NCBI RefSeq assembly: GCF_003334255.1
Contig: NZ_QOWU01000083.1
Reading direction: 5' to 3' (one strand)
Origin: Escherichia coli
GTDB lineage: Bacteria > Pseudomonadota > Gammaproteobacteria > Enterobacterales > Enterobacteriaceae
Length of the DNA stretch: 11,380 bases
Shown here piece after piece: positions 3,608-11,380 of the stretch (position 1 is its first letter; each line of letters opens with the position of its first letter). The position numbers and the translations under genes are program-made. The notes under the pieces were generated by a model, which worked only from the letters and a program-made list of their open reading frames with translations, was not told the DNA's origin and searched no databases.

Positions 3608-3772
3608 TGGTGTTTTTTTGGTGTGTGTTTGGGTATGTTTTGGGTTTTAAGTGGGTTTGTTTGTCAAGTTTACCCCATTTCAACCATCAATCAATGATTA
3701 TTTGTCTTGTTTTGGTGTTTTATTGGGTTGGGTATGGGTTGTTTTTGGGTTTTGTTTGGCGGGTAACAAAAG
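3608..3772 (-). promoter_or_regulatory. parC: parC centromere/promoter region: two blocks of about five 11-bp iterons flanking the parMR promoter
   Basis: 11-bp periodic T/G-rich repeats on the + strand (for example ttgggtatgtt, ttgggttttaa, gtgggtttgtt, then after a ~45-bp spacer ttgttttggtg, ttttattgggt, tgggtatgggt, tgtttttgggt, tttgtttggcg). The spacer, read on the minus strand, contains TTGATT-16 bp-TAAACT and TTGACA. Architecture matches established R1 parC (10 iterons around the promoter). Confidence 0.7.
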
Positions 3773-4108
3773 ATGTCGCCGGGCTCCTCTTTTTACTGCG
3801 CCGGCTGACGCGGCGCGGCAGGAACGCTGCCTGTGGTCAGTGTCCCGCGTCCGGCCGGGCACGGGACGGGCGCTTTTACCGCTCCCGGCTGGCGTTGGTG
3901 ACAGTGTACGCCAGCCCGTCGCCCTTTTCTGATGAACGCCCTTCAAGCCGCTTTCGCGGCATATCCTCGCCGTCAAAAAGACGACGGCTGCGGTATTCCA
4001 CGGTCGGCCTGACCCGTTACCGGACGCGGTGAACAGCCCACAGGCAGCGGGGAACGGGCACCACAGGGGTGCCCTCCCGGTGCCCTCTGTAAGAGAAGGA
4101 GTGCTGTT
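3773..4108 (+). promoter_or_regulatory. Long GC-rich untranslated leader upstream of the methyltransferase operon; candidate structured promoter/ssi-like element
   Basis: About 335 bp with no credible ORF (only overlapping R/P/G-rich frames on both strands). Shares the 13-mer TGAACAGCCCACA (4030-4042) with 8399-8411. Ends with RBS AAGGAG before ATG 4109. Confidence 0.3.
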
Positions 4109-4792
4109 ATGTCCCGTTTTATCCTGGGTGACTGCGTGCGTGTTATGGCCACGTTTCCGGGCAATGCTGTCGATTTCATCCTCACCGACCCGCCGTATCT
4201 CGTCGGTTTCCGTGACCGTTCCGGGCGCACCATCGCCGGCGATAAAACCGATGAATGGCTGCAACCAGCCTGTAATGAAATGTACCGCGTACTCAAAAAA
4301 GACGCGTTAATGGTGAGCTTCTATGGCTGGAACCGCGTCGATCGCTTTATGGCCGCCTGGAAAAATGCGGGATTCAGCGTTGTTGGTCACCTGGTCTTCA
4401 CCAAAAACTACACATCGAAGGCCGCATATGTGGGCTATCGCCACGAATGTGCCTACATCCTGGCAAAAGGCCGTCCACGTCTGCCACAAAACCCGCTGCC
4501 GGACGTGCTGGGCTGGAAATATTCGGGCAATCGCCATCACCCGACGGAAAAGCCCGTTACCAGCCTGCAACCGCTGATTGAGAGCTTCACACACCCGAAC
4601 GCAATTGTGCTGGACCCGTTTGCAGGCAGCGGCTCAACCTGCGTCGCCGCCCTCCAGTCCGGACGCCGGTATATCGGTATCGAGCTGCTTGAGCAGTATC
4701 ACCGTGCCGGGCAGCAACGCCTTGCCGCCGTGCAACGGGCCATGCAGCAGGGGGCCGCGAATGATGACTGGTTTATGCCGGAGGCTGCGTAA
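4109..4792 (+). CDS. Orphan DNA methyltransferase, N6-adenine/N4-cytosine beta class (PF01555-like)
   Basis: 227 aa. Motif IV DPPY near the N-terminus (LTDPPYLVG) and motif I near the C-terminus (VLDPFAGSGSTCVAA), the order typical of beta-class amino-methyltransferases. Good RBS AAGGAG before the ATG. No adjacent restriction endonuclease candidate. Confidence 0.85.
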   Translation: MSRFILGDCVRVMATFPGNAVDFILTDPPYLVGFRDRSGRTIAGDKTDEWLQPACNEMYRVLKKDALMVSFYGWNRVDRFMAAWKNAGFSVVGHLVFTKNYTSKAAYVGYRHECAYILAKGRPRLPQNPLPDVLGWKYSGNRHHPTEKPVTSLQPLIESFTHPNAIVLDPFAGSGSTCVAALQSGRRYIGIELLEQYHRAGQQRLAAVQRAMQQGAANDDWFMPEAA

Positions 4793-6289: not shown

Positions 6290-6706
6290 TGACGTTGGCG
6301 GGGTAAATCCCCGCCTTTTTCCTGCCGGTCCCCGGACAGAGCACAAAGGAAGTCGCCGCCGGCTCCGCTTTACCCGGCCATGCAGGGCATGGCCTTGTGG
6401 TTTTTCAGTTATGTGGCCTCAGCGTCGTGTGCGGGCTGTGCCGTGCCTCCATCTTAGCCGGGCTGGCAGGGATGCAAGGGTACGCTTCGCCGCTGCGGTC
6501 ACCCGGTCCCTCCTTCCCGTCTGCCGTGATTTTCCGGTCGTTCACCCGCTCAGATTTCGCGGTCTCACCCTCCAACTCCCGCCAGCCGTGTGCGTCAGGC
6601 TGCGGCTTCCCTTGCGCCCTGTGCATCCCCGCCTTATCGCCCGGCTTTTATGGAGGCACGGCACCGCCCGGTGTCGCGGAATATGTGAACAACGGAGGAA
6701 AACATC
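6290..6706 (+). promoter_or_regulatory. GC-rich about 415-bp untranslated region upstream of klcA; candidate structured promoter/ssi-like element
   Basis: No credible ORF (the 6129-6734 and 6397-6741 frames are R/C/W/P-rich and overlap). Ends with TGAACAACGGAGGAAAACATCATG (RBS GGAGGA before klcA ATG 6707). Confidence 0.3.
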
Positions 6707-7132
6707 ATGCAATATGCGAAACCTGTCACTCTGAACGTTGAAGAGTGCGACCGTCTCTCCTTTCTACCGTATCTGTTTGGCAACGATTTTCTGTATGCCG
6801 AGGCGTATGTGTACGCGCTGGCGCAAAAAATGATGCCGGAATATCAGGGAGGCTTCTGGCACTTCATCCGCCTGCCGGACGGTGGCGGTTACATGATGCC
6901 GGATGGCGACCGTTTCCACATGGTGAACGGTGCAAACTGGTTTGACCGTACCGTGAGTGCTGATGCCGCAGGCATCATTCTGACTTCCCTTGTGATTAAC
7001 CGCCAGTTGTGGCTGTACCACGACAGCGGGGATGCAGGACTGACCCAGCTTTACCGGATGCGCGATGCGCAGTTGTGGCGTCACATCGAATTTCACCCCG
7101 AATGCAACGCGATTTACGCGGCACTGGACTGA
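6707..7132 (+). CDS. klcA: KlcA/ArdB-family antirestriction protein
   Basis: 141 aa; ...[68 protein letters not shown]... matches my recollection of KlcA/ArdB (Antirestrict family) proteins on IncF/IncP/IncN plasmids. RBS GGAGGA 7 nt upstream. Confidence 0.85.
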
Positions 7133-7789: not shown

Positions 7790-7957
7790 TACAGGGGCAG
7801 GCGGTGGAGGCCGCCTGTCAGCCCGCGCGAAAACCCCTGGCAGGCTGACGCCTGCCGGAAGGGAAGCGGGCCACGCTGGCGCGTCGCCCGTTACCCTTCC
7901 CGTCTGTGATGTGTCTGACTCAGGAGTGTTTCTTTCTTATGTTATGGAACTGTTCCT

Positions 7958-8058
7958 GATGTTGTTGTTCCTTTATCTACTGCTCTGATTCTGACTACTG
8001 CAGTGTTGTTCTGTCTGCCGGGCGCACCTTCGGCTCCCGGCTGCCTGGCGGCATCCGG
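7958..8058. repeat. Copy 1 of a repeated leading-region element (77-bp core with 1 mismatch to copy 2)
   Basis: Core 7982-8058 (GCTCTGATTCTGACTACTGCAGTGTTGTTCTGTCTGCCGGGCGCACCTTCGGCTCCCGGCTGCCTGGCGGCATCCGG) matches 11304-11380 with a single T/C difference. The upstream GATGTTGTTGTTCC (7958-7971) is also shared with 11247-11260. Confidence 0.6.
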
Positions 8059-8409
8059 TCGTCAGGCCCGACTCCGACAGGCAGCTGCTGGCGCACCTGC
8101 CAGTCTCCGCCGAACCCGCTGGCGCGGTTTCGGGCTGCCGCTACGGTCCGATGCGTGAAAACCCCTGGCTTGCAGCGACCGTTCCGGTCGCGCCGCCTCT
8201 GTCGCGCCGTGGCCTGCGCTCCCGGCATCCCGGCAAAAGGCCGCCGGGATGTAAGGGGCAACGCCGTTTCGCGCACGCGCTCTCCGTCGTTGCGGCGGGC
8301 CCCTGCTCATTGCCTGCCGGGTGCCACACACCCGTATGAGTCCCTGTCGCCGGGGGCTGATACAGCCACAACCTGCCGCACTGACTGTCCAGGGTAAATG
8401 AACAGCCCA

Positions 8410-8445
8410 CAAAATTTTTTACCCAAAACCCGGTAAAAAATTTTG
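8410..8445. repeat. Perfect 14-bp inverted repeat (CAAAATTTTTTACC / GGTAAAAAATTTTG) with 8-nt loop
   Basis: 8410-8423 and 8432-8445 are exact reverse complements; an AT-rich stem embedded in GC-rich DNA, immediately after the shared 13-mer TGAACAGCCCACA. Confidence 0.5.
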
Positions 8446-8729
8446 CGTTCTGCCCAGGACAGGTGCGTCAGGCCGTGGCAGTGATGCCCCTTGCGGCGAA
8501 GGTTCTCAAACGGGTGAAGTTCATACCACAGTGAATACAGCAGCAGGTTCCCGCGAAACGTCAAAACCGCGGCTCCCGAAACTCAACGGGTGATGTTCTT
8601 TAAAAATCAGGATTTATTTCAGGCTCCGGCAATACGCATTTATTTGTTCTGTCAGTCATCCGGCTGACAGGTAATGAGAACGCAGGAACAGAAGGAGGAA
8701 AACACCGGAAAGCGTCAGATGCAGATATG

Positions 8730-8753
8730 AAAAAAGCAGGTCAGGCACCTGCT
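8730..8753 (-). terminator. Terminator-like hairpin oriented for the minus strand (stem AGCAGGT/ACCTGCT, followed by T6 on the minus strand)
   Basis: On the + strand: AAAAAA-AGCAGGT-CAGGC-ACCTGCT. On the minus strand this is a 7-bp stem followed by TTTTTT. Located about 75 bp upstream of ATG 8827. Confidence 0.35.
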
Positions 8754-8826
8754 TAATCCACGCCGTAAGAATTGTGCGACCAATTTTGACGGCATTGTTA
8801 ACCAATTTGTCATAAGGAATCCATTT

Positions 8827-9057
8827 ATGACTGTAAGCATTGTTTCACCTTCCGCAGCGGCTGTAAAGCCCCGCCGTCATCCCCGTTTCAGACGCGAAGA
8901 CATCCCCACGCCGGAAATTGACCCCGTGTTGAAAGCCTTCGGGCGACACATAGCCCGGAGTTTTCACCGGGGGCGTGGTGTACACATCCCCGCCATGAAA
9001 AACACGGCTTTCGGGCAGGTGCTCCGCACACTCGAACTGAAACGCGCTTTTAACTGA
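8827..9057 (+). CDS. Hypothetical small basic protein (76 aa)
   Basis: ATG with AAGGA upstream; R/K/H-rich product; co-oriented and followed after 51 bp by the 453-aa gene. No recognisable family. Confidence 0.45.
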   Translation: MTVSIVSPSAAAVKPRRHPRFRREDIPTPEIDPVLKAFGRHIARSFHRGRGVHIPAMKNTAFGQVLRTLELKRAFN

Positions 9058-9065
9058 TGAGGTGA

Positions 9066-9085
9066 GCCGCCCCGCGAGGGGCGGC
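9066..9085. other. Intercistronic GC hairpin (GCCGCCCC-GCGA-GGGGCGGC) directly upstream of an RBS
   Basis: Same 8-bp stem sequence as the hairpin at 7142-7160; followed by AACAGACGGAAGGAGAACATTTTATG. Confidence 0.5.
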
Positions 9086-9108
9086 AACAGACGGAAGGAG
9101 AACATTTT

Positions 9109-10470
9109 ATGACATTAGCAGCAATCACCATGACCGCCCCGGAAGCCGCCAGCCCTGTGCAGATGTACCGCGCGACCTACTCACCGGATGACAACAAACT
9201 GCGCCTGTATGCCGTGTCACGTCTTGACCCGGAGACGTATAAAAAAGTGCATGATGCTGGTTTTCGCTGGGCACCAAAACAGGCGCTGTTTGTCGCGCCA
9301 GCCTGGACACCGGGCCGGGAAGACGTGCTCCTCTCACTTGCCGGAGAGATTGAGGATGAAGACAGCACGCTCGCTGAACGTCAGGAAGCACGGGCGGAGC
9401 GGTTTACCGGATACAGCGGAAAGCGGGCCAGTGAATCCGCACAGGCACTTGATGAAGTGGAAAGACTGGCCGCGATGATCCCGCCCGGTCAGCCCATTCT
9501 TGTGGGGCATCACAGCGAACGCCGCGCCCGTCGTGATGCGCAGCGTATTGAAAACGGCATGAAACGTGCCGTGATGCTCTTTGAACGTGCGGAATACTGG
9601 GAAGAGCGGGCGCGGTCGGCACTGCTTCACGCGAAGTATAAAGAACGTCCGGACGTTCGCTGGCGTCGTATCAAAAAAATCGAAGCTGATTTGCGCAAGG
9701 CTGAAAAGACCATCGCGCAGTCGCAGAAATATCTGACGATGTGGCGGGCTGAATCGCTGGATCTGAATATGGCAAAACTCATCAGCAGTCATGACCATAT
9801 CAGCGCCTGTTTCCCGCTGGATACGTATCCGCGCCCGGCAGAAAAAAGCCAGTATGAAGGGAGCCGGTCGTTATGGTCGGCCCTGGATGATGACATCATC
9901 ACCACGGAGCAGGCCCGCGAAATTGCGATCCGCTGTCATGAACGGCAGATTCAGCATCAGCAACGCTGGGTTAACCACTATCAGAACCGCCTGATCTATG
10001 AGCGTGCCATGCTGGACGAAAGCGGCGGCGTGGTTACCCGGACACAGGATTTTGAGCCGGGCGGACAGGTTTTCAGCCGGGGCGAGTGGCTGACCATCAT
10101 CCGCGTGAACAAAAGCAACGGGGCGGTGAGTTCAGTCACAACGCCGAATTACAGTTTTCTCGGGTACAGCGGCACGATGAAAGTGACGCCCGATCGCATC
10201 ACGGACTACAAAGCACCATCGGCAGAAGAGGCTGCCATCGCCAGCCAGGCCGCGAAGCGTCCGCCGGTAGTCAACTATCCGGGGGAAGGTTTCCGGGAAA
10301 TGACAAAGGCACAGTGGGCCGCCCTGCCCCGGGACTGTAAGGCCGTGCGCAGTGTGGCAGAAGCAGAAGACCACGGGGCATACCGCTACCGCCGCACAAT
10401 GGACAATAATTTCCGCCTGGTGAATGTGTATATCACCGACATGAAAATCACGGAAATCCCACAGAAATAA
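9109..10470 (+). CDS. Conserved plasmid protein of unknown function (453 aa; possibly the DUF3560 family, unverified)
   Basis: Strong RBS AAGGAGA; long ORF with GC-rich codon usage. Central region is highly charged (R/E/K-rich, probably helical). No catalytic motif recognised by eye. Confidence 0.7.
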   Translation: MTLAAITMTAPEAASPVQMYRATYSPDDNKLRLYAVSRLDPETYKKVHDAGFRWAPKQALFVAPAWTPGREDVLLSLAGEIEDEDSTLAERQEARAERFTGYSGKRASESAQALDEVERLAAMIPPGQPILVGHHSERRARRDAQRIENGMKRAVMLFERAEYWEERARSALLHAKYKERPDVRWRRIKKIEADLRKAEKTIAQSQKYLTMWRAESLDLNMAKLISSHDHISACFPLDTYPRPAEKSQYEGSRSLWSALDDDIITTEQAREIAIRCHERQIQHQQRWVNHYQNRLIYERAMLDESGGVVTRTQDFEPGGQVFSRGEWLTIIRVNKSNGAVSSVTTPNYSFLGYSGTMKVTPDRITDYKAPSAEEAAIASQAAKRPPVVNYPGEGFREMTKAQWAALPRDCKAVRSVAEAEDHGAYRYRRTMDNNFRLVNVYITDMKITEIPQK

Positions 10471-10475
10471 GGTAT

Positions 10476-10501
10476 ATCCCCCCGGGAAATCCCCGGGGGA
10501 T
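10476..10501. other. Intercistronic GC stem-loop (ATCCCCC...GGGGGAT) between the 453-aa gene and the downstream methyltransferase
   Basis: 10476-10482 ATCCCCC pairs with 10495-10501 GGGGGAT; the loop contains the palindrome CCCGGG. Followed by RBS GGAGA and ATG 10517. Confidence 0.45.
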
Positions 10502-10516
10502 GACGGAGATAATGAC

Positions 10517-11080
10517 ATGCACAGTCAGTTAAGAGAACGTATCCGGCTGATGCGCGCAAGGCTGGATAACGCCGCGCCGGTTGCTGAAATCCGGGCTGAA
10601 TCTCAGCTTTTTGTGACTCCTGCCCCGGTCTGTGATCGCCTGGTGACGCTGGCGGAAATCAGCAACCGTGATCACATTCTGGAACCCTCTGCCGGCACCG
10701 GGGCCATACTGCGGGCGATTCGGGATACCGCGCCGGAGGCCATGTGTGATGCGGTGGAGATTAACAGCGGGCTGGTCCGGTATCTGCGGGAAAATTTTAA
10801 CGGTGTCAGGGTACAGTGTGGCGACTTCATGGAATGGCAGCCGGTGCAGTATTACAGCCGGATCATTATGAATCCGCCGTTCAGTCACGGGCAGGATATC
10901 CGGCATATCCTGCGGGCTTTTTCCCTGTTGCGTCCGGGGGGCGTGCTGGTTGCCGTCTGTCTCAACGGGCCGCGCCAGCAGGAGAAGCTGTTACCGTTTT
11001 CTGACGTCCGCGAGGAGCTGCCGCGCGGCACGTTTGCTTATACCGATGTCCCGACGATGATTATTCGTTTGCGTGCCTGA
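10517..11080 (+). CDS. Small class I SAM-dependent methyltransferase with amino-methyltransferase NPPF motif (putative orphan DNA or RNA methyltransferase)
   Basis: 187 aa. Motif I-like LEPSAGTGAIL followed about 55 residues later by IMNPPFS (the (D/N)PP(F/Y) motif IV), i.e. a gamma-like order. Too short for a separate target-recognition domain. RBS GGAGA 7 nt upstream. Confidence 0.75.
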   Translation: MHSQLRERIRLMRARLDNAAPVAEIRAESQLFVTPAPVCDRLVTLAEISNRDHILEPSAGTGAILRAIRDTAPEAMCDAVEINSGLVRYLRENFNGVRVQCGDFMEWQPVQYYSRIIMNPPFSHGQDIRHILRAFSLLRPGGVLVAVCLNGPRQQEKLLPFSDVREELPRGTFAYTDVPTMIIRLRA

Positions 11081-11246
11081 TGACACAGGGCTGGCGGGAG
11101 GATAAATGCCCGTCTGTCCGCACCGGGAAAAGACCGCGCGCCGGTGGCGCTGAAAGGGGCCGCGCTCACGCGCCGCCCCTTTCATTACGCGGACGTTCTG
11201 ATGGGGGCTTCTGTCTTTTCAGACCTGTCATTTGTCTGTTACTGAT

Positions 11247-11380
11247 GATGTTGTTGTTCCTGCTACTGCTACTGCTACTGCTACTGCTCTTCTTTTTCCT
11301 GCCGCTCTGATTCTGACTACTGCAGTGTTGTCCTGTCTGCCGGGCGCACCTTCGGCTCCCGGCTGCCTGGCGGCATCCGG
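11247..11380. repeat. Copy 2 of the repeated leading-region element, truncated by the window end; contains a (TGCTAC)4-5 microsatellite insertion relative to copy 1
   Basis: 11304-11380 matches 7982-8058 (76/77). Between the shared GATGTTGTTGTTCC and the core there are tandem hexamers TGCTAC x4 plus TGCTC (11261-11289) that are absent from copy 1. Confidence 0.6.

Follow-up and report, generated by a model that had tools for sequence, protein, structure and literature searches.

A perfect 14-bp inverted repeat upstream of ydbA in an IncF leading region as the apex of a probable class-1 Frpo/ssi-family single-stranded DNA promoter

The window, an 11,380-nt stretch of Escherichia coli DNA (contig NZ_QOWU01000083.1), matches IncF plasmids at 100% identity and is an IncF leading region. 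The gene order starts with stbAB (parMR), a DNA methylase gene, a klcA/ardB-type antirestriction gene and a DUF1380 gene, followed by the intergenic region that holds 8410–8445; after this element come, as annotated in relatives, ydbA, a DUF3560 gene, a class I SAM methyltransferase gene, ssb, a parB-like gene, psiB, psiA, hok and oriT/traM. Within the window, ydbA (76-aa protein, 8827–9057, plus strand) and the DUF3560 gene (9109–10470, plus strand) were assigned from their open reading frames and the annotation of identical or near-identical plasmids, the class I SAM-dependent methyltransferase (10517–11080, plus strand) from its open reading frame, plasmid annotations and methyltransferase domain matches, and a further 76-aa gene (11080–11310, plus strand) from its open reading frame. 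These four co-oriented genes at 8827–11310 are the presumed cargo of a promoter upstream of ydbA. All leading genes lie on the plus strand and point to oriT; their template, the transferred strand, is therefore the window's minus strand. The element is thus intergenic, in the leading region and upstream of genes templated by the transferred strand, as judged from how the genes are ordered and oriented with respect to oriT/traM in pEFC36a, F and pXHKP53-1, and the same intergenic leading-region configuration holds in 14 other sampled plasmids. Positions 7800–9100 are matched at 100% identity in many IncF plasmids of Escherichia, Shigella and Salmonella, typically three times per plasmid; in pEFC36a, the three paralogous copies of the element lie upstream of ydbA (the copy studied here), upstream of ssb and downstream of hok.

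Other structured features were observed elsewhere in the window. At 2220–2266, a perfect 19-bp inverted repeat (ATTGAGTTCCCTTTATCCA / TGGATAAAGGGAACTCAAT, 9-nt spacer), longer than the 14-bp repeat, lies 11 nt past the stbB/parR stop codon (minus strand), with a T-rich run after it on that strand; it probably serves as the stbAB terminator. At 6290–6710, the minus strand contains a second long transferred-strand hairpin (−106.9 kcal/mol, z −5.7) directly upstream of klcA/ardB, whose homology to the candidate 'Frpo' 4', given by Samuel et al. from insect metagenomes, is clear by eye; on this homology it is probably the published class 2 ssDNA promoter (ssp2, 'Frpo3'), which is reported to be a replication roadblock. 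The minus strand at 3751–4125, just upstream of the methylase gene at 4109, folds at −84 to −90 kcal/mol per 300 nt (window median, −46), and is a candidate for the class 3 ssDNA promoter that is expected at this position. Between a 63-aa open reading frame and the Frpo hairpin, 7790–8262 is non-coding, 62–72% GC, and rich in small hairpins (z −6.3); the minus-strand open reading frames annotated within it in some records are probably spurious. Within it lies a perfect 9-bp repeat (8226–8234/8243–8251, CATCCCGGC...GCCGGGATG), the right part of which recurs beside F Frpo1 and Frpo2.

The sequence at 8410–8445 reads CAAAATTTTTTACC-CAAAACCC-GGTAAAAAATTTTG, with a left arm at 8410–8423, an 8-nt apical loop at 8424–8431 (CAAAACCC on the plus strand, GGGTTTTG on the transferred strand), and a right arm at 8432–8445. 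The arms are exactly complementary over 14 bp, in agreement with an earlier note on this DNA, made from the letters alone, which had singled out a perfect 14-bp inverted repeat with an 8-nt spacer. On the transferred strand, the left arm becomes the 3' arm (GGTAAAAAATTTTG) and the right arm the 5' arm (CAAAATTTTTTACC), and two further pairs (a C:G pair and a G.T wobble) extend the apical stem to 16 bp on the minus strand (8408–8423/8432–8447). Dinucleotide-preserving shuffling of the whole window produced no perfect repeat of at least 14 bp (3–20 nt spacer, 300 shuffles, longest repeat 13 bp, 12 bp reached in 4 of 300), which upholds the claim of the earlier note that a repeat of this length has a low chance of occurrence. 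Folded alone, the apical hairpin has a free energy of −13.0 kcal/mol on the minus strand and −11.5 kcal/mol on the plus strand, with a z score of about −4.8 for both. The apical stem is 79% A+T; its surroundings, described previously as more than 65% GC, reach this value on the left (68–72%, 8000–8400), but only about 48–58% on the right.

The 14-bp repeat sits within further imperfect inverted repeats (I1, I18, I15 and I4), which together build a transferred-strand (template-strand) hairpin about 300 nt long. The whole element, assigned as a class-1 (Frpo/ssi-type) ssDNA promoter as set out below, extends from about 8260 to 8596 on the minus strand, with the left arm of the long hairpin at about 8265–8407 and the right arm at about 8448–8562. 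Folding of 8260–8600 with DNA parameters gave −93.5 kcal/mol for the minus strand (z −7.5, none of 100 shuffles equally stable), and −85.1 kcal/mol for the plus strand (z −7.3). In the minimum free energy structures, an 8-nt bulge (TTCATTTA, 8395–8402, minus strand) interrupts the 3' arm of the transferred strand, so that the AT-rich apical hairpin joins the next stem asymmetrically, and the bulge motif (C/T)AT(T/C/A)T is kept in most families, including variants that lack the apex or carry a GC-mini-hairpin in its place. The functional unit is the hairpin of about 300 nt, and the 36-nt repeat is its apex, not an autonomous site.

The two strands of the element do not fold equally well. In 32 of 32 folded elements the transferred strand was more stable than its complement, by a mean of 12.9 kcal/mol, and the same advantage was seen in 13 of 13 family representatives; at the apex of the studied copy, 16 pairs form on the minus strand versus 14 on the plus strand. 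The asymmetry arises because G.T wobbles on one strand are A.C mismatches on the other, and it suggests that selection acts on how the transferred DNA strand folds.

For identification of the element, the copy upstream of ydbA was compared with the known Frpo and ssi sequences, and showed 92% identity to F Frpo2 and 79% to F Frpo1/ssiD over about 356 nt. The Frpo2-acrIIA4 construct of Samuel et al. (2024) contains, according to its sequence file, the identical 14-bp repeat. The supplementary table of that study gives F ssiD and ColIb-P9 ssi1–3 as read on the transferred strand, and each of them has a homologous AT-rich hairpin at its apex. Given the Frpo/ssi homology, leading-region location, orientation and transferred-strand hairpin of the element, the repeat is very probably the apical hairpin of a class-1 Frpo/ssi-family ssDNA promoter in the leading region of an IncF conjugative plasmid. 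Class 1 comprises ssi1–3 and Frpo1–2, whose start sites have been mapped by 5' RACE (Wen et al. 2025). Frpo is described as a stem-loop that reconstitutes −35 and −10 boxes for host sigma70 RNA polymerase; deletion of Frpo1 or Frpo2 abolishes early expression, and F Frpo2 is needed for zygotic expression of the genes downstream of it. Frpo transcripts also prime complementary-strand conversion in vivo, and early conversion events are abolished by rifampicin. The ssDNA-promoter activity in the literature belongs to F Frpo1/2 and pESBL/ColIb-P9 ssi1–3, and the published work on F covers Frpo1 and Frpo2, not the copy upstream of ydbA. According to literature citing Nomura (1991), ssiD was discovered with the M13-based ssi assay. 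The element is therefore of an already known kind, its identical apex being part of F Frpo2. The earlier note had proposed a functional single-stranded hairpin of primosome or promoter type; homology bears this out in that the hairpin is one of the plasmid ssDNA promoter and priming hairpins, of which the repeat forms only the apex, while a primosome-type site is at odds with published descriptions, in which sigma70 RNA polymerase recognises the homologous F element.

Compared with individual relatives, the studied copy is closest to F Frpo2 (ssp1b), which matches it along the left arm and at the apex, with the 14-bp repeat and the loop both exact, as well as in strand and type of location; F Frpo2 stands directly upstream of ssb, whereas the studied copy stands upstream of the ydbA-DUF3560-methyltransferase block, and the right arm of F Frpo2 matches the ssb-proximal copy of IncFII-type plasmids. 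F Frpo1/ssiD forms the same long hairpin with an AT-rich apical hairpin at the same position, but its apical stem is imperfect (GCAAAACTTTTTGCC / GGCAAAGATTTTGC, plus strand), and the internal loop of its 3' arm reads TGTCTTT in place of TGTATCA in the studied copy. The class-1 elements ssi1–3 of ColIb-P9 (IncI1) have an apical module about 80% identical, with compensatory A:T to G:C changes, on lower stems that are not alignable with the IncF type and in a different backbone (MOBP/MPF_I). Class 2 (ssp2/'Frpo3', upstream of klcA/ardB) and class 3 (ssp3, upstream of methylase) ssDNA promoters are also long transferred-strand hairpins of the leading region, but they resemble class 1 neither in sequence nor in having an AT-rich apical hairpin. 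The minus-strand origin of M13/f1 and the rolling-circle ssoA origins are likewise single-stranded hairpins on which host RNA polymerase makes primer RNA. A comparison of Frpo with such phage minus-strand and ssoA-type origins has also been drawn in the literature; they share no sequence similarity with Frpo, and serve priming only, without expression of downstream genes.

To compare apices, 35 class-1 elements with 22 distinct apical modules were taken from 16 plasmid leading regions, including F, pEFC36a, ColIb-P9, an IncI-gamma/K plasmid, Klebsiella IncFII(K)-type plasmids, and plasmids from Enterobacter, Rahnella, Pantoea, Kluyvera, Serratia plymuthica and others. AT-rich hairpins made up 19 of the 22 modules, 6-bp GC hairpins two, and one module had no apex. 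In an alignment of 21 AT-type apices from at least five families (alignment A2), the apical stem was paired in 88.6% of cells, versus 80.3 ± 1.2% in shuffles (0 of 500 reaching this value) and 44–68% when the register of the stem was slid, and RNAalifold independently found the same stem. Two-sided changes in this alignment cluster in the loop-proximal G:C pairs and the outer pair, with compensatory columns 16:47 (GC 13, AU 4, UG 2, CG 1), 18:45 (CG 12, GC 7) and 2:60, so that the conservation including compensatory changes which the earlier note had named as a check on the repeat was found in relatives. The columns of the A-tract and T-tract are identical in 20–21 of the 21 apices, and the loop varies in sequence and in length (2–26 nt). 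The centre of the stem (columns 10 and 53) holds a mismatch, mostly G.G, in 11 of 21 apices, T:A in eight and G:C in two; the G.G mismatch occurs because both stem arms carry the same word, AAAAGTTTT. The apex is under sequence constraint beyond pairing, and the invariance of the A/T-tracts and the central G.G mismatch are not accounted for by fold nucleation alone. With ColIb-P9 ssi2 as query, IncF plasmids matched over the apical module only, at about 80% identity, which makes the apex the best conserved part between IncI and IncF.

Across plasmids, the 65-nt apical module was found at ≥95% identity in 8,724 places in 4,413 PLSDB records, R100 and F among them, and much of this prevalence is recent common ancestry of IncF plasmids, not independent retention. 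The apex-less junction was present in 2 of 72,556 PLSDB records. One apex-less element, the ssb-upstream copy of pEFC36a (L001, 12726–13093), lacks exactly 57 nt, comprising the AT hairpin and its 5' junction, as a clean gap with the 4-nt ACAG on both sides, and still folds at −108 kcal/mol, so that in predicted structures the apex is not strictly indispensable for folding. A 6-bp GC-mini-hairpin (GCGCGG-TTTA-CCGCGT) replaces the AT apex in elements of Citrobacter werkmanii (L079, 2665–3038) and of Klebsiella plasmid pKPCKP060 (L134, 1009–1347), which keep the adjacent CATTTA-CCC-TGGAC motif, and published insect-metagenome candidates also carry a 6-bp GC hairpin instead of the AT apex. A scan of a 298-Gb genome collection with the pattern TGTCCKGGG-N(21-81)-CCCTRGAC was unspecific, with nearly all of its 120 matches due to chance in GC-rich genomes, and the Citrobacter element alone was taken from it into the analysis. 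Absence of the repeat from close relatives, which in the earlier note was to count against a function, is thus seen in the two apex-less records and a minority with GC hairpins, and the repeat is otherwise kept.

Other explanations of the repeat were weighed against these data. In duplex DNA, the palindrome could bind a dimeric plasmid or host regulator, or H-NS or Fis through a bent AnTn tract, and silence the leading genes in the donor; its perfection, its 8-bp centre and its position as an AT island in GC-rich DNA suit such an operator, and the A/T-tract that is invariant across families is a constraint on sequence, not on pairing alone. Duplex sites are strand-symmetric, however, and the transferred strand folds better in 32 of 32 elements (16 versus 14 pairs at the apex); furthermore, the covariation of loop-proximal pairs and a spacer of 2–26 nt are incompatible with fixed half-site spacing, 11 of 21 apices are mismatched at the centre, and no regulator gene is associated with the repeat. 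Sequence-conserved half-sites at fixed spacing, free of strand asymmetry, were accordingly not what the aligned elements displayed, and the dimeric operator put forward in the earlier note is very unlikely. That the transferred strand always folds better also argues against a hairpin in the plus-sense mRNA leader, which would act as attenuator, stabiliser or terminator of the ydbA operon transcript: selection on mRNA leads one to expect the opposite of a plus-sense strand that is consistently less stable, even though that strand folds too (z −7.3), and a transcript started in the left arm (anatomy A, below) would carry the repeat at about +30 to +65, where it could fold as RNA. A search of the whole window at the Rfam gathering threshold gave no match, and a scan of 8150–8850 for intrinsic terminators found none at the repeat, reporting one site at 8734–8754 on the minus strand; the stem is AU-rich with the T/U run inside it, unlike an intrinsic terminator. 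A role at the RNA level is accordingly as improbable as a duplex operator.

Plasmid single-strand initiation signals of the PriA primosome or primase type, which work independently of RNA polymerase, are hairpins as well, but sigma70 RNA polymerase is described as recognising the homologous F element, and rifampicin abolishes the early conversion that this element supports in vivo, which makes such a signal scarcely credible here. The 57-nt AT-rich module might instead be a dispensable insertion, a neutral or selfish indel at the tip of the hairpin, given that the apex-less and GC-mini-hairpin variants still form the long hairpin, and that the module is cassette-like, with one clean 57-nt gap and flanking 4-nt ACAG repeat in the apex-less copy. 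Against this, the module is the best conserved segment between IncI and IncF, its A/T core stays the same across 21 variants drawn from at least five families, and the apex-less form is confined to 2 of 72,556 records, which leaves a dispensable insertion highly improbable.

Published work on close homologues supplies the mechanism for the class-1 ssDNA promoter. In conjugation, the recipient would receive the minus strand of the window as single-stranded DNA, in which the imperfect palindrome of about 300 nt would fold on itself and mimic a duplex promoter, so that host sigma70 RNA polymerase could transcribe ydbA and the DUF3560 and methyltransferase genes ahead of complementary-strand synthesis. 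The promoter RNA could also prime synthesis of the complementary strand, and conversion to duplex DNA would remove the hairpin and switch the promoter off. The apex (16 bp, −13 kcal/mol), short-range and perfect, would be the first part able to fold once the tip is inside, and by folding early may set the register for zipping of the long stem. Its AnTn duplex, placed on a junction that would be kinked by the 8-nt bulge, appears to be selected for sequence beyond pairing. Within the promoter, the apex could be a UP-like upstream contact, or a fold-nucleating, easily melted turn-around.

Which of these roles applies would depend on where the promoter boxes lie, and two anatomies were drawn from candidate hexamers on the minus strand. 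In anatomy A, the candidate −35 box is TTGAGA (8504–8509, 5' arm), and the candidate −10 box is CATCAC (8481–8486, 5' arm, 17 nt after TTGAGA), which has 3 bases unpaired in an internal loop; transcription would run up the 3' arm, around the tip and down, with the repeat at the positions given above, and an easily melted AT tip would ease its passage. TTGAGA is invariant in five families with F-like lower stems, and TTGAGA-17-CATCAC, a weak match to the consensus (8 of 12), is the best match in every family with such a lower stem, the old ssiD entry reading TTGAGA-17-CATACT (9 of 12). The distance from this pair of boxes to the apex is 37 nt in GC-mini-hairpin variants versus 56–65 nt otherwise, as expected if the apex is a variable downstream module, as it would be in anatomy A. 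In anatomy B, the promoter would lie in the 3' arm below the apex, with transcription running down and away from the tip and the AT hairpin as a UP-element-like upstream contact. Its candidate −35 box is TGGACA (8386–8391, 3' arm, 5 of 6 consensus positions), in a perfect stem with 8457–8462 that is covered by cross-family BLAST matches, and T(G/A)GAC is kept in IncF, IncI and Klebsiella-type elements; its candidate −10 box is TATCAG (8357–8362, 3' arm), on the opposite side of the CATCAC internal loop, which lies about 18–20 bp below TGGACA, and this hexamer is not conserved in F Frpo1.

The two anatomies stand at roughly even odds, with weak consensus matches and neither one conserved across all families. 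Anatomy B is favoured by the apex and TGGAC being kept from family to family and by the invariant polarity of the AnTn tract; F Frpo1, which has been shown to work and has no A in its 3'-arm loop, speaks against it. The UP-element consensus is reportedly AAAWWTWTTTT, and the arm AAAATTTTTT matches it at 10 of 11 positions, a resemblance only. A position about 11 bp upstream of the −35 box is that of the distal UP subsite in rrnB P1. With the bulge looped out, the AT tract here would lie about 11 bp upstream of TGGACA, next to a distance of 10 for the rrnB P1 UP element (Ross et al. 1993); unlike that element, the duplex at the apex is one DNA strand folded on itself, and its −35 box is a candidate only. 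A scan of 8150–8850 for duplex sigma70 consensus sequences returned no promoter. Other hexamers (a −10 box in the 8-nt bulge, a −35 box formed by the TTG that ends the AT arm, and CAAAAT as −10 box) were rejected as chance-level and not conserved. Also set aside was the argument that a truncated hairpin starting at the equivalent of 8341 is functional, which would have placed the promoter in the upper stem (anatomy B), the working construct, in the leading region, having been amplified from the full-length start aacgccgtttcgc. Among the oligonucleotides of Samuel et al. (2024), the lagging-region Frpo2-acrIIA4 control starts at gtccctgtcgcc, about 80 nt further in, and this control of position therefore also differs in promoter completeness.

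A further proposal, which we regard as possible though rather doubtful, is that the AT-rich apical hairpin, and not the weak, poorly conserved −35/−10-like hexamers, is the defining recognition module of class-1 ssDNA promoters, an invariant AnTn duplex on a side arm kinked by the conserved 8-nt bulge that would be read sequence-specifically by the alpha-CTDs of RNA polymerase, as a one-strand UP element, or by another host factor. If true, it would explain why the apex alone is conserved between IncI and IncF, why the A/T tracts do not covary, and why a central G.G mismatch is frequent. The strand-asymmetry statistic, the invariant AnTn core with its frequent central mismatch, and the apex as the sole segment shared by IncI and IncF may go beyond the literature consulted, and these comparative results bring testable detail to an element that is known but still poorly documented in its internal anatomy. 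Frpo/ssi promoters enable conjugative plasmids to turn on anti-restriction, anti-SOS and methylase genes within minutes of entering the cell, ahead of second-strand synthesis, and this early expression is a key step in the spread of resistance plasmids. The identification assigns a function to an unannotated intergenic region of 1 kb in thousands of IncF plasmids, and makes zygotic induction probable for ydbA, the DUF3560 gene and the methyltransferase gene.

In the course of these comparisons, F Frpo2 (L002, NC_002483, 10218–10643) was observed to be a hybrid when set against positions 9404–9821 and 12726–13093 of pEFC36a. In its left arm and apex it agrees with the ydbA-proximal copy, whereas in its right arm and ribosome-binding region it follows the ssb-proximal one. 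F also lacks the ydbA-DUF3560-methyltransferase block of about 3.3 kb, and the hybrid element together with the missing block is consistent with a deletion in F in which two Frpo repeats recombined. For IncI plasmids, the literature describes a similar exchange of Frpo by Frpo.
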